Origin: Thermoplasmatota archaeon
GTDB taxonomy: Archaea > Thermoplasmatota > E2 > DHVEG-1
Length of the DNA stretch: 64,000 bases
NCBI GenBank assembly: GCA_029939595.1
Contig: JAOZSQ010000001.1
Span: forward strand, 261,722-325,721
Reading direction: 5' to 3'
Each line of letters begins with the position of its first letter. Position 1 is the stretch's first letter. A program made the translations under genes and the position numbers. Positions 4,555 through 9,936 of the stretch are shown piece by piece. The notes below the pieces were generated by a model that saw only the letters and a list, made by a program, of their open reading frames with translations, did no database searches and was not told where the DNA came from.

Positions 4555-5121
4555 ATGACAAAAACGAAACAAGATCCAGCAGAAAAATTACAAAAGATTA
4601 GTGACGCATTTGATGTAGCAAATGAGACTTTATCTGAGATTACTGTTGATGTTGAAAATAGTGAGATTATGCCGGATGATGGTGAGATTGATAAATTTAC
4701 TAGTGAAATGTTTTCTGCGAGTCAGTTAAAAGCCGATTTTATGCTGGTTAGAAACAATTTAATTCAGTTGATTAATGTTGGTCAAACATTATTGAAATCC
4801 GCTCAATTTTTAGATTTGGACGAGTTACCAGCTACTAAAATGGAAGCATTAGCATCTCTTCAACGAGCGGCATCAGATAATTTAAAAACACTGATAACGA
4901 TTTATAAGGATATGCGTGAAATTGAGGTTGGAAAAGGTTCTAATGTTAGGAAAACGGAAACTAAAAATACTTCGGTGTTTATTGGAACAAATCAAAAATT
5001 ATTGGAAGCTTTGAGTGATGTTAAAATAGAGAAACGAGTGCCAATGATAGATGTCAGTGCGATTCAAAAAGAAAGAGAAGCCCAACGCCAAAAGAGAGCA
5101 GTAATAACAACACATGGATAA
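4555..5121 (+). CDS. terS: terminase small subunit (T4 gp16-like)
   Basis: C-terminal region ...IYKDMREIEVGKGSNV...NTSVFIGTNQKLLEALSD... parallels T4 gp16 ...LHKDMKDITSEQVGTKG...NATVFMGSPTELMDEIGD... AAGGAG ribosome-binding site. Confidence 0.5.
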   Translation: MTKTKQDPAEKLQKISDAFDVANETLSEITVDVENSEIMPDDGEIDKFTSEMFSASQLKADFMLVRNNLIQLINVGQTLLKSAQFLDLDELPATKMEALASLQRAASDNLKTLITIYKDMREIEVGKGSNVRKTETKNTSVFIGTNQKLLEALSDVKIEKRVPMIDVSAIQKEREAQRQKRAVITTHG

Positions 5122-5536
5122 TTACGTATATGTGTATTGTGATCCACGAAAAAATGGTGGTTACAAGTATTGTGATTATGAATTTGAATGTGAACCTTTC
5201 TATGTGGGAAGAGGCATAAAAGATCGGTGTGGAGATCATCTTCAAGAAGCCATTCTTCATGAAAAACCGAGGGGAAATATTGTAAAATTTAATATTATTA
5301 AAGAGATATTAAATGAGAATTCCAATCCGATTATCAAGTTTGTTGCGAATGAAATCAGTTTGGAAGAATCTTTGTTTTTGGAAATGTGTATGATAAAGAT
5401 TATAGGAAGACAGGATAAGAATGAAGGTCCGCTGACCAATCTTACTGATGGAAGCCGGATGAAAACGGGTTATAAGAATATATTGTCTTTGGTTTCCAAG
5501 TATTATTTTGAGGAAAGAGAACGTGATTACATTTAA
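5114..5536 (+). CDS. GIY-YIG family nuclease (Seg-like homing endonuclease candidate)
   Basis: N-terminus NYVYVYCDPRKNGG...PFYVGRGIKDRCGDH matches the GIY...YIG...R...H motif spacing. Inserted between terS and terL. Confidence 0.5.
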   Translation: MDNYVYVYCDPRKNGGYKYCDYEFECEPFYVGRGIKDRCGDHLQEAILHEKPRGNIVKFNIIKEILNENSNPIIKFVANEISLEESLFLEMCMIKIIGRQDKNEGPLTNLTDGSRMKTGYKNILSLVSKYYFEERERDYI

Positions 5537-6866: not shown

Positions 6867-8206
6867 TTACATTTAAACAATTTTTATCAGAAGCTTTAGA
6901 TCCAGAAAAGATACATCAAAAGTATTATTCTGATATAGATAAGACTGATTTCTATACTATACTCAATCTTGATCCGACAACCATTTCTAAGAGAGGTAAG
7001 GTACGTAAGGTTGGGAAGTATGTTAAGTTTATCATGAACTGGTATAAGAAGTTTCCTGGTTGCATTCATGAGGATTTGAATGGTGCTTTAACTTATTTTA
7101 TTGATAATCAATCCGAATTTAAGCCGATTGAGCAGTATAAAGATTGTGGTAAGTTTGTTGATGCTGTTAATTTGGAAAGAGAAAGAAAAGAAAAATTGGA
7201 AAAAGATAATCCGATTGTTGAGGAAACCAAGAATTGGTTGATAAGGGAATTAAATACTGAAGAGGGTTCACAGCATTTTGGTGCGGATAGAGGTTGGTGT
7301 ACAGCTAGTAAGGATGATTGTTATTTTGGTAGTTATAAAAAGAAGGGAAATCTCTATATATTTTATCAGAAACCAGAAGAAAAACCTCATGCTCAGTTGT
7401 TTGTTAATAAGAATGGTGAAACCGAATTTATGTTTCCTTATAATGAAGCGGCTGACGTTGATCAGTTTATGGATGAAACTGAAGAATTGGTGCCTTGGAT
7501 GAAATCGGTTGGTGTGGATTATTTTGATGGAATTAAGTTTGGAGGTCGTAAGTTTAAATATGAAATTAGAGACAATGTTGTTGTTTTTACAGGTATGTTG
7601 GATCTTTCTGATTTGGATTTAAATTCATTAATGGAGTTTGTTGAAGAATTGCCATTTGGTTTGAAAGAATATTCAACAGACCAATTTAATTGTAGTGATA
7701 ACAATTTGACTTCTTTAGAAGGGGCACCAATATCTTCAAATGGATTTCAGTGTGACAAAAATAATTTAACATCATTAGATGGTTTACCAGATATAAGAGA
7801 GTTTTTTTCTTGTGACCATAATAAATTAACTTCTTTAGAAGGTGGTCCAAAAAATGTTGATGGTTTTTATACTTGTTCTCATAATAATTTGAAAACATTG
7901 AAGGGAGCACCAGTTACCGTTGGGGGTGTGTTTATGTGTAGTAAAAATACTGATTTAATTTCGTTGGAAGGCGGACCACAAATAGTTAATTTTAATTATG
8001 ATTGTAATACATGTAATTTGGAATCTTTAAAAGGTGCTCCTTCACATGTTGGTGGGTCTTTTAATTGTAAAGTTAATAAAATAACCTCATTAGAGGGCAT
8101 TCCAAAAGTAGTTAATGGAGATTTTTTAATTAGTTATAATCCAAGAACTTTTACCAATGAAGATCTTGAAGCATTATGTGATATAGGAGGATTGAAGTAC
8201 GTATAA
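6863..8206 (+). CDS. CTS-tagged LRR-like cargo protein, tandem paralog of 5523 gene
   Basis: MITFKQFLSEALDPEK. About 120 nt (7010-7140) are identical to 5671-5800. C-terminal repeats N-N-L-T-S-L-E/D-G-x-P. Confidence 0.7.
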   Translation: MITFKQFLSEALDPEKIHQKYYSDIDKTDFYTILNLDPTTISKRGKVRKVGKYVKFIMNWYKKFPGCIHEDLNGALTYFIDNQSEFKPIEQYKDCGKFVDAVNLERERKEKLEKDNPIVEETKNWLIRELNTEEGSQHFGADRGWCTASKDDCYFGSYKKKGNLYIFYQKPEEKPHAQLFVNKNGETEFMFPYNEAADVDQFMDETEELVPWMKSVGVDYFDGIKFGGRKFKYEIRDNVVVFTGMLDLSDLDLNSLMEFVEELPFGLKEYSTDQFNCSDNNLTSLEGAPISSNGFQCDKNNLTSLDGLPDIREFFSCDHNKLTSLEGGPKNVDGFYTCSHNNLKTLKGAPVTVGGVFMCSKNTDLISLEGGPQIVNFNYDCNTCNLESLKGAPSHVGGSFNCKVNKITSLEGIPKVVNGDFLISYNPRTFTNEDLEALCDIGGLKYV

Positions 8207-9936
8207 TGGAAGAATTATCTGATTTTGTTAGAGATGCGAATGGGAAAGTGATAAGATATCATGATAACACAAATTTGCGTCCAGCGCATTGCCCACTTGA
8301 ATTATCAAAAGAGCATGTTGCTGAGTTTACAAGATGTAAAAATGATGTTTTTTATTTTGCCGAACATTATTATAAGATTGTTGAATTGGATTATGGATTG
8401 CGTAATATCCGGCTCCGAAACTATCAAAAAGAGATAATGGAAAAGATAGATGCGTTCAGATTTAACATCTTAAATATGCCTCGCCAATCAGGTAAGTCAA
8501 CCATTTTTCAAACATGGTTAACACATTATATTTTGTTTAATTCTCATAAGAGTGTGGCTATTCTTGCCAATAAACGAGACAATGCCCAGGATATGCTTAA
8601 AAAGGTTAAATTGGCTTATGAAAACTTACCCAAATGGATGCAGCAAGGTGTAACAGAATGGAATTTGGGAAGAATTGAATTGGAAAATGGAAGTATTGTT
8701 TATGCATCATCCACTGCTAGTAGTTCTATCCGATCAAAGTCTATTAATATATTGATTTTGGATGAGGTAGCGTTTATTCATGAAAATATGTGGGATGCTT
8801 TTTATAGTTCAACTTATCCTGCGATCACTGCCAGTAAGACTTCCAAGGTGATTATGGTGTCAACTCCAAATGGAATAAATCAGTTTTTTCAACTTTGGGA
8901 GAAAGCCGTTGCTTGTGAAAGCGAGTATATTCCAACCCGAATTTATTGGTGGGATACACCTGGAAGGGATGAAGATTTTAAAGAAGAGATTATTGCTAAT
9001 TTTGGTATAGAGAAATGGCGACAAGAATATGAATGTAATTTCTATACCACATCCAACACATTACTCCAACCGGACAAAATCAAAGAGTTAGCCAAGTTTG
9101 CCAAACCAGGAATTAAGTCAAAATTACATAAGGCATTTGAGAAGATTCAGAAAGGATTTGAGGAACATTTAAGAGTTTTTCAGAATCCAAAGTCACATCA
9201 TGAATACGCTATAGGAGTTGATTCAGCAAAAATGACACCTGATTCCAAAGGAGATGCTATTTGTGTTCAAGTGTTAGATGTAACGAAGTTGCCATTTAAG
9301 CAAGTTGCCACATTTTATGTTTCGGAGGGTTTTTATTATATGAATACACCTGAGTTGGTTGATATGTTGGGTAGGTTTTATAATAATGCGTTGGTATATG
9401 TTGAGAATAATGATGGGTCTGGTTCTGAGATAGCGGGAGTGTTGTTTTTGGATTATGAGTATGAAAATTTATATTTTGGGAAGTTGCATATTCCAGGTTA
9501 CAAGCAAACCAGCCAAACCAAGAAGTTAGGAATACAGAATTTAAGAACATATGTAGAGAAAAATAAGTTGCATATATATGATATTGTAACGATTAGTCAA
9601 TTTTCTTATTTTGTGAAGTATAGGGATACTTATAAGGCTCAAAAGGATTATCATGATGATGCTATCTTGGCTTTAATTCATGCTTTATACTTTTTACAAT
9701 TGAGTGAATATGTGGATAGCAAAGCCGATTTGATTGATGCTGTGATGAAGGATGATAAGTATTTGATGAATAAGAAGTTAGTTAGTACGGATGGAGCAAT
9801 GGCACCTTCTGATATGTTTGGAGGTGAGAGTGACGACAGACCAGGATTATTTGATGAGTATGATGATTATGATGTTCCTTCTGCTGGTTTTTTAGATGAT
9901 GAATTAGTAGATGATGGGGGTTGGATGACAAGATGA
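8206..9936 (+). CDS. terL: terminase large subunit (T4 gp17-like), ATPase plus nuclease
   Basis: Walker A MPRQSGKST, Walker B ILILDEVAF, and a C-terminal RNase-H-like nuclease region (GVDSAK...DAICVQVLD). 576 aa. Confidence 0.9.
   Translation: MEELSDFVRDANGKVIRYHDNTNLRPAHCPLELSKEHVAEFTRCKNDVFYFAEHYYKIVELDYGLRNIRLRNYQKEIMEKIDAFRFNILNMPRQSGKSTIFQTWLTHYILFNSHKSVAILANKRDNAQDMLKKVKLAYENLPKWMQQGVTEWNLGRIELENGSIVYASSTASSSIRSKSINILILDEVAFIHENMWDAFYSSTYPAITASKTSKVIMVSTPNGINQFFQLWEKAVACESEYIPTRIYWWDTPGRDEDFKEEIIANFGIEKWRQEYECNFYTTSNTLLQPDKIKELAKFAKPGIKSKLHKAFEKIQKGFEEHLRVFQNPKSHHEYAIGVDSAKMTPDSKGDAICVQVLDVTKLPFKQVATFYVSEGFYYMNTPELVDMLGRFYNNALVYVENNDGSGSEIAGVLFLDYEYENLYFGKLHIPGYKQTSQTKKLGIQNLRTYVEKNKLHIYDIVTISQFSYFVKYRDTYKAQKDYHDDAILALIHALYFLQLSEYVDSKADLIDAVMKDDKYLMNKKLVSTDGAMAPSDMFGGESDDRPGLFDEYDDYDVPSAGFLDDELVDDGGWMTR

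Follow-up and report, generated by a model that had tools for sequence, protein, structure and literature searches.

An expanded array of genes with a putative capsid targeting peptide in and around the packaging genes of a T4-like jumbo phage

We analyzed a 64,000-nucleotide stretch of contig JAOZSQ010000001.1 (the window, numbered from its first letter), in which the terminase genes terS and terL and the tail sheath gene of a T4-like late gene block lie apart from one another, and in which many of the open reading frames (ORFs) around them begin with the same short peptide (the tag). The window is a 32% GC segment with nearly all of its genes on the same strand. Its TerL protein was present on one public contig, of 426,929 bp. 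The closest TerL relatives among 5.8 billion proteins were 42-48% identical, and the best cultured relative, that of Pelagibacter phage Mosig, was 39% identical. A megablast search of a phage collection with positions 4000-10500 found no near-identical DNA. Judged by these comparisons, the source of the window appears to be a deep-branching T4-like jumbo phage of ~427 kb. Neither tRNA genes nor Rfam families were detected in the window.

The late block, whose features named here are all on the plus strand, begins with a box resembling the T4-type late promoter (TATAAATA, 1092..1099), 31 nt upstream of the gene for the tail sheath stabilizer gp15, a conserved core gene (1130..1909; PF16724, E=7.7e-41). 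Two tagged paralogs that are 52% identical follow: A1 (1899..3107; MRFKVFLE...LIE), which has an N-terminal 'WC[IT]T' domain, and A2 (3115..4545; MSFKKYINNLLNE), whose likely start is the ATG at 3115, inside ORF 3058-4545. An earlier model-made reading of the letters (the original prediction) did not mention these two genes between gp15 and terS. Next come terS (4555..5121), a gene for a 140-aa GIY-YIG nuclease consisting of the catalytic domain only (5114..5536), two tagged genes with leucine-rich repeats (LRR paralogs 1 and 2; 5523..6866 and 6863..8206), and terL (8206..9936). Beyond terL there are five tandem paralogs with no assigned function (9933..15258), four beginning MISF[KR]LFLEK or MIGFKLFLEK and the fifth MIKLRDILK. 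Of the 30 ORFs with the tag pattern, 22 lie in the rest of the tagged array (15255..38142). Untagged accessory genes (38191..40533) and two TATAAATA boxes (at 41504 and 41557; 41504..41564) precede the tail sheath gene gp18 (41590..43848; PF04984, PF17482, PF22671). In all, 31,653 nt with ~43 plus-strand and two minus-strand ORFs lie between terL and the sheath gene. The terS, GIY-YIG, LRR, terL and sheath genes of the original prediction were all found where it had placed them, with one change: for the first LRR gene the most likely start is GTG 5523, which gives the N-terminus MITFKQFLSE and has GAGGAAAGAG upstream, and not TTG 5508.

We compared the spacing of these genes with that in T4-like loci from IMG/VR, relatives and cultured phages. 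In T4 itself, genes 15, 16, 17, 18, 19 and 20 are back to back, and the original prediction had taken the contiguity of gp16, gp17 and gp18 to be a rule for T4-like genomes. We found that it is true of T4 and T-even-like phages only. In the 37 loci with a detectable TerS, the terS-terL gap was at most 300 nt in 13, 300-1500 nt in six and more than 1.5 kb in 18, and the 3.08 kb gap in the window is typical for the superfamily. Three relatives have terS-terL gaps of 3.5-8.7 kb that contain a second paralog of gp23, the major capsid protein (L083, 1297-2718; L086, 6781-8217; and the P0016 contig).

The distance from terL to the sheath gene is a different matter. In 70 of 71 loci, less than 1.9 kb separated the start of the sheath gene from the end of the TerL match. 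L095, the sole exception, had a gap of 7.85 kb containing methyltransferase, Thy1, QueC and radical-SAM genes. The 31.65 kb gap in the window is four times the largest in these 71 loci, and only this gap is exceptional. Describing the packaging module as invaded, as had been proposed, therefore fits the interval from terL to the sheath gene, which does consist of 31.65 kb of other genes, far better than the interval from terS to terL, which is ordinary and holds tagged genes in marine relatives too. None of the seven relatives had the gene order of the window, so the synteny result that would have refuted the original prediction was not obtained.

The pattern F-K-x-F-L-x-E was found within the first residues of 30 of the 69 ORFs, compared with eight occurrences inside proteins in 17,551 residues. 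With corrected starts, 29 ORFs begin M-x-x-F-K-x-F-L-x-E or a version one residue shorter, and the consensus decapeptide is M-I-S/T-F-K-Q-F-L-x-E. Position 4 was aromatic and position 7 was F, Y or H in all 29; position 8 was L or I in 28, position 10 was E in 24, and positions 6 and 9 were variable. The full [LI]-x-E at positions 8-10 was present in 23 of the 29 tags. At the conserved residues the codons vary synonymously (TTT/TTC, AAA/AAG, TTA/TTG/CTA/CTT, GAA/GAG), which indicates that selection acts on the peptide. Four tagged genes flank terS, 26 ORFs matching the pattern lie between terL and the sheath gene, and one follows the sheath gene. The tag is not on gp15, TerS, the GIY-YIG protein, TerL, or the sheath or tube proteins.

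As a control, we used one regular expression that also matches T4 ipII and ipIII. On the plus strand of the window it picked out 30 ORF starts, and on the minus strand none. Across 759 kb of IMG/VR loci it matched 12 genes, all on the TerL strand, and in 83 kb of T4 it matched one extra site. This extra site is internal in uvsW (MLLEFKQFLYE, NC_000866 ~114,210; L099 14210), where it starts the last 76 codons, and it may be a chance match. We also noted an ORF at 21170-22192 (plus strand; region 20380-22192) that has FKQFLLE at residue 23 with no adjoining start codon and overlaps the preceding ORF by 26 nt. It could be a frameshift, a gene fusion or a gene with a decayed start.

The tag resembles the capsid targeting sequence (CTS) of T4, MKTYQEFIAE (PMC8442874). 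In a mutational analysis of the T4 internal protein IPIII, targeting depended mainly on residues 4 and 7 and processing on residues 8 and 10, and the prohead protease gp21 cleaves after L/I-X-E (PMC9026906). The N-terminus of T4 IPI is MKTFKEF. The tags in the window thus conserve exactly the positions mapped functionally in the T4 sequence. We found no mention of an FKQFL-type tag in the literature searched.

Similar tags were found in other phages. Between terS and terL, L083 has one tagged gene (MLGFKQFISE); L086 has two tagged genes, one of which encodes a WCIT-domain protein. Marine T4-like contigs carry a family of 102-106-aa proteins (phrog_1742, no assigned function) that start MKSFKQFLSE and are encoded in the terS-terL gap. 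On the same contigs a second family, of 118-144 aa, is encoded within 3.5 kb upstream of terL and includes SSM2_108 of S-SM2, a cultured cyanophage (MKTLKQFLKE). These two small-protein families were found in L001, L002, L034, L037, L038, L064 and L078, in L019, L055 and L071, and in L090 (S-SM2), and most members of both are encoded between terS and terL or at most 3.5 kb 5' of terL. Full-length LRR homologs in other metagenomic phages start MKKYFEFILE or MVKLKDILSE and can be tandem pairs. This distribution shows the tag to be old and widespread in the part of the T4 superfamily outside the T-even phages, the terS-terL gap being among the places where it is usually found. What sets this genome apart is the scale of its tagged genes.

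The tag is joined to unrelated folds, including LRR, the WCIT domain, a DNA ligase and a CCA-adding enzyme, and to many proteins without known relatives. The ATP-dependent DNA ligase (23110-23922, plus strand) has homologs in other phages that align only from residue 10-21 onward. These observations suggest that the tag is a portable add-on to unrelated proteins. The best ligase match was in an uncultured 485-kb phage, LR745208, which we rejected as a relative on account of its GC content (56%) and its lack of tags. The array contains tandem paralog families, and tagged genes on the two sides of terS share one domain: the WC[IT]T domain of A1/A2 recurs as the N-terminal half of the LRR pair (hhalign 98%, E=6e-14).

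The two LRR proteins both start MITFKQFLSE and are 63% identical over 431 aa, with a tandem repeat of 63 nt (21 aa) in 6-10 copies. An AF2 model of LRR paralog 2 had a pLDDT of 81 overall and above 90 over residues 270-430, the LRR part, and Foldseek matched it to the LRR domains of IpaH/SspH with a probability of 1.0 and target-normalized TM-scores of 0.5-0.6. Homologs of the pair carry PF12799; the LRR proteins of the window had no Pfam LRR match at E<0.1. The repeats and the model indicate a leucine-rich repeat solenoid. PF14284 (PcfJ) has a precomputed match in several homologs that share the LRR part and had no match at E<0.1 in the window proteins.

Some other proteins of the array are recognizable. 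The C-terminal half of the protein encoded at 19552-20292 (plus strand) matches Pfam Tad6, a Type I Thoeris inhibitor (E=7.7e-19); its likely N-terminus, MKFSQFLEH, is a degenerate tag, and it is a candidate for an injected anti-defense protein. The gene for a tagged CCA-adding/polyA-polymerase-HD enzyme (27658-29073, plus strand) directly follows an ORF at 27095 (plus strand) whose tagged product has an 'ILYHGTT' motif and no Pfam or PHROG match. The ligase, the CCA-adding enzyme and the 27095 protein may constitute a pre-packaged set for nucleic-acid repair.

Untagged genes are interspersed in the array. Those for a VanY carboxypeptidase, two SBP_bac_3 solute-binding proteins and an SH3-like protein encode secreted products with signal-peptide-like N-termini and are host-like. 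VanY, SBP_bac_3 and SH3-like genes are at 29070-30852, and an SBP_bac_3 gene lies in the group at 38191-40533 (both plus strand) together with untagged host-like genes for a patatin-like protein, an RsbW-like HATPase_c_2 kinase and a STAS antagonist. The interval between terL and the sheath gene had been described as some 30 kb of cargo, lysis-like and regulatory genes, and the presence of these genes among the tagged ones bears this out. The G-over-C skew of the coding strand was 0.3-0.48 over the tagged array, about 0 over the sheath gene and 0.07-0.2 over gp15 and terL, which indicates that cargo and core genes differ in composition.

There were 19 TATAAATA boxes in the window, 11 of which lie in the 8% of the sequence that is intergenic, with boxes upstream of the gp15, sheath and tube genes. 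On the plus strand there were none between the end of the gp15 box at 1099 and position 38682. The junctions from gp15 to 17927 are all stop-start overlaps or gaps of less than 25 nt. As far as motifs can tell, the array could be transcribed late by read-through from 1092, which seems plausible.

The product of the gene at 4555 was proposed to be TerS, and several comparisons support this. Taken alone, it matched PF11053 with 19.5 bits (E=9e-4), below the Pfam cut-off of 25, and two PHROG terS families matched it at E~2e-5. A tblastn search and an IMG/VR scan with this protein gave no matches, and its homologs were located via the neighbors of TerL. Six relatives had such homologs (161-187 aa, 28-36% identical), adjoining TerL on its upstream side in four (L082, L085, L095, L096) and encoded a few kb upstream, between gp15 and TerL, in two (L083, L086). 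The profile of this clade aligned with T4 gp16 over residues 42-147 (hhalign 91%, E=1e-6), and also matched Mosig TerS and the 'small terminase' of PDB 9oox (E=0.002). PF11053 was matched by four of the five clade members, with a best E of 1.5e-5. In the window, the gene has AAGGAG 7 nt 5' of its ATG and lies on the same strand as gp15 and terL, after the former and before the latter, the position of a gp16-type gene. The profile matches and gene position argue for accepting the protein as a true but distant member of the gp16 family. Its last ~30 residues have no counterpart in the homologs, and the start codon of the GIY-YIG gene lies inside the region encoding this tail.

TerL is of the gp17 type (PF03237, E=1e-23). 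Its RQSGKST (Walker A) and LILDE (Walker B) motifs align with T4 gp17, and its D/E/D nuclease residues align with T4 D401, E458 and D542. Both the ATPase and the nuclease motifs are intact, and TerL is complete. The idea that the GIY-YIG protein replaces a defective TerL nuclease was rejected because the TerL nuclease residues are intact. There is also a stand-alone 224-aa paralog of the TerL ATPase domain, encoded on the minus strand between the sheath and tube genes (48395-49069). It is 30% identical to TerL residues 51-279 (E=2e-35), has replacements of the Walker A lysine (RQCGSST) and the Walker B aspartate (LIATE), and looks like a catalytically dead copy of the terminase ATPase.

We propose that a lineage-specific expansion of genes for capsid-targeted cargo proteins took place in and around the packaging genes, and we estimate the probability of this reading to be roughly 0.6. 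The terS-terL interval would be an old home of tagged genes in T4-like phages outside the T-even group. The family would have grown in this interval, in the one from gp15 to terS and most of all in that from terL to the sheath gene, stretching the gp15-terS-terL-sheath block from ~5 kb to ~42 kb, mainly by tandem proliferation of tagged genes. Recombination probably took place at the conserved 5' ends that encode the tag. The decapeptide would be a capsid targeting sequence, the counterpart of T4 MKTYQEFIAE, and would dock each protein onto the prohead scaffolding core. A gp21-type prohead protease would then cut the tag after [L/I]-x-E, and the mature protein would stay in the head and be injected with the DNA. 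Because the genes of the array follow the late-promoter box at 1092 and are packed so that stops overlap starts, their products are plausibly made at prohead assembly. There is precedent for effector genes beside terminase and portal genes whose products are packaged into the head (PMC9503650), and giant phages package many protease-processed proteins (PMC5694885).

Several observations weigh against this proposal. We infer from sequence, not from virions, that the tagged proteins enter the head and are cleaved. Neither a gp21-type protease nor a gp22-type scaffold was identified in the 64-kb window, and the canonical [L/I]-x-E is missing in six of the 29 tags, four of them in the FLEK paralogs. 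The array would provide ~30 cargo species, several of 300-470 aa, far above the T4 precedent of about eight internal head proteins. A sigma-70-like site lies at 20297-20325, which suggests that part of the array may have its own early promoter, and this site or a gap of 347 nt at 26748 could hold other promoters. Our scans for sigma-70 promoters and terminators performed no better than on shuffled sequence. The base composition of the GIY-YIG gene is that of its neighbors, with no sign of recent arrival. Finally, the closest relatives have only 42-48% TerL identity, at which the insertions cannot be dated or polarized.

The shared N-terminus could instead be a conserved cassette for translation initiation or recombination, or direct the proteins to a destination other than the head, with the genes forming an ordinary hyperplastic accessory block in the late module. 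Some properties of the genes agree with this. The codons ATG ATT AGT begin 13 of them, and the first 300 nt of the LRR pair are 90% identical compared with 63% overall, which fits recombination or gene conversion. According to one report (PMC2839356), shuffling in T4-type phages is driven by short conserved boundary cassettes. The mixing of untagged host-like genes into the array also fits an ordinary accessory block. On the other side stand the synonymous codon variation at the conserved tag residues and the retention of the peptide in distant marine T4-like phages with unrelated downstream sequence. The conserved positions are also exactly those important in the T4 capsid targeting sequence. 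The absence of the tag from core structural genes and from the minus strand also speaks against this explanation, which we consider unlikely.

Further alternatives concern the GIY-YIG gene, which the original prediction regarded as the classic footprint of a homing endonuclease. The domain itself is real (PF22945, E=4e-12; 46.8 bits compared with a cut-off of 27), and the residues that are invariant in the family alignment (Y6, Y30, G32, R38, H42, E90 and N109) are all kept. An exhaustive HMMER search found 4,351 cluster representatives of this family at E<=0.001; a word-indexed search with the protein gave one distant match only. Family members are normally 210-400 aa, with a C-terminal extension that has NUMOD3-like repeats in the examples inspected, and just four of the 149 best matches were 160 aa or shorter. 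The window protein ends ~25 residues past the catalytic domain, at a point beyond which homologs of 231-292 aa carry the extension. It has no NUMOD, HTH or zinc finger module for DNA binding, and no remnant of the extension was found in any frame of the window, in which the gene is single-copy. Its ATG overlaps the terS stop (ATGGATAA, 8 nt) and its 3' end overlaps LRR paralog 1 by 14 nt, and there is neither intergenic space nor a separate promoter. Its nearest homolog, P0123 (132 aa), shares 53% identity with it. P0123 is encoded between uvsY and uvsW in the T4-like locus L097, overlapping the uvsW start, which is the segE position in T4. The gene is missing at the terS end in all seven relatives, a sporadic distribution. 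No similarity was detected between the GIY-YIG protein and T4 SegB, SegD, SegE, SegG or I-TevI, or the homing endonuclease genes of L082 and L085.

Because its short closest homolog sits at the segE position in another T4-like phage, we think it likely that the gene derives from a homing endonuclease. It is probably not homing today. It was probably inserted once at the terS end as a reduced relative of free-standing homing endonucleases, with the C-terminus of TerS remodeled as a result, and would now be co-translated with its neighbors. We do not regard the gene as a classic homing endonuclease gene: it has the domain and a mobile-type lineage, and lacks the DNA-binding region, a separate promoter and any similarity to Seg proteins and I-TevI.

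A stronger version of that interpretation is that a mobile GIY-YIG homing endonuclease recently invaded the terS-terL junction, that it carried or attracted the cargo, and that its selfish activity broke the module. The catalytic residues are intact, the gene sits exactly at the terS end as in none of the relatives, and TerS is ~30 aa longer than its homologs there; the nearest homolog occupies a different locus in another phage, and L082 and L085 hold several homing endonuclease genes in the same neighborhood. Yet the composition, the missing DNA-binding domain and the overlaps with both neighbors do not suggest a recent, autonomous arrival, and terS and terL are widely found apart, with tagged genes between them, where there is no GIY-YIG gene. 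The tagged genes on either side of it have paralogs in other parts of the array, which argues that they arose by local duplication and were not brought in by the GIY-YIG gene. We regard this version as distinctly unlikely.

We give an equally low weight to the possibility that the GIY-YIG protein is not selfish, being a domesticated accessory nuclease that acts in packaging or in degradation of host DNA, or together with a DNA-binding partner. Translational coupling to terS and the retention of every catalytic residue would suit such a role, and the persistence of a short form at 53% identity in another phage suggests purifying selection. Against it, the nuclease residues of TerL are themselves intact, none of the relatives encodes a nuclease here, and short forms are rare in the family. 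Last, an assembly artefact, in which a chimeric contig of unrelated phage fragments created the gene order, is very improbable: the assembly is of metagenome type and there is no close relative for comparison, but the junctions from gp15 to 17927 are tight, composition and strand bias are uniform across the region, tagged paralogs lie on both sides of every core gene, and the junction of LRR paralog 2 with terL was reproduced on an independent Logan contig.

A wider form of the capsid-targeting proposal is more tentative, and we would not yet bet on it at even odds. In this form the gp15-gp18 stretch would be a ~35-kb arsenal of at least 30 capsid-targeted proteins, made at prohead assembly, trimmed and injected as a takeover, repair and anti-defense kit; the FKQFLxE-type tag would serve the marine and non-T-even branch as its general CTS, and its ancestral locus would be the terS-terL gap. 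Should the tags work as they do in T4, this phage's predicted set of head-packaged proteins would far exceed any other in the T4 superfamily, and candidate injected effectors could be listed from sequence in uncultured T4-like phages, including abundant marine ones. The LRR proteins, the ligase, the CCA-adding enzyme and the Tad6-like protein would be concrete candidates for anti-defense and repair functions. The supposedly fixed gp17-gp18 junction could evidently take more than 30 kb. The homing-endonuclease part of the story is minor, adding another reduced GIY-YIG gene in a phage late module.

Some features beyond the array were also noted. The gene directly after the sheath gene (region 43849-46156, plus strand) encodes a protein of 315 aa that has three zinc-ribbon-like repeats and carries FDFAIF...IEHMGEQH as a C-terminal motif, and an ORF containing DUF3223 follows it. 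Upstream of each of these two genes is a good sigma-70-like site (TTGACT-17-TATACT and TTGACA-17-TATGAT), and they look like independently expressed, possibly mobile genes. We considered whether the gene at 43985 corresponds to the MTES_1575-like gene at the same position in L082 and rejected this, as the two are not homologous. The gene at the tail-tube position is duplicated (49817-50365 and 50414-50986), with copies 45% identical. Three large genes downstream of it (52201-54084, 54097-55341 and 58360-62793) are mutual paralogs, and neither these nor the tube-position copies had Pfam matches.

The components of the locus can each be compared with known systems. The LRR pair shares the short-repeat LRR solenoid fold of the IpaH/SspH effectors at ~20% identity; it lacks their NEL E3-ligase domain and has the phage 'WC[IT]T' domain as its N-terminal part. 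The free-standing endonucleases of T4 (SegA-G, with segD between genes 23 and 24 and segE 5' of uvsW) likewise have a GIY-YIG catalytic domain, and like the window gene they lie between conserved genes of the late module and are missing from relatives at the site. The Seg enzymes are 205-245 aa, whereas the window protein has 140 aa, no C-terminal DNA-binding region and no promoter of its own; it falls in a PF22945-type clade whose sequence similarity to Seg proteins and I-TevI is not detectable.

In the hyperplastic regions of the T4 superfamily, as in the window, variable genes pile up between conserved core genes, and the gp15-terS, terS-terL and (in L095) terL-sheath junctions accept insertions in relatives. 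The window differs in the size of the terL-sheath insertion, at most 7.85 kb elsewhere compared with 31.65 kb here, and in the dominance of one class of tagged genes over miscellaneous small ORFs. The giant phages phiKZ, 201phi2-1 and SPN3US resemble the proposed system in that jumbo phages carry many head-internal proteins; in these phages propeptides are cut after Glu by a gp21-related protease, and there are paralog families with conserved N-termini (PMC5694885). Their propeptides are mostly longer than 100 residues and are cleaved at A/S/G-x-E, and their genome organization is not T4-like.

A further parallel is with T4 IPI, IPII, IPIII and Alt and with the other variable internal proteins of T-even phages that bear a CTS. 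There, as in the window, a short N-terminal peptide, aromatic at positions 4 and 7 and with L/I-x-E at 8-10, is found in a T4-like background on fast-evolving mature proteins that are unrelated to one another and include at least one with activity against host defense. The tagged proteins of the window, known here from sequence alone, differ in that many are large (300-470 aa) and some are recognizable enzymes. T4 has three ip genes and alt in its whole genome, with the ip loci separate at 65-74 kb, whereas ~30 tagged genes are found in 64 kb of this genome, inside the gp15-gp18 late block.

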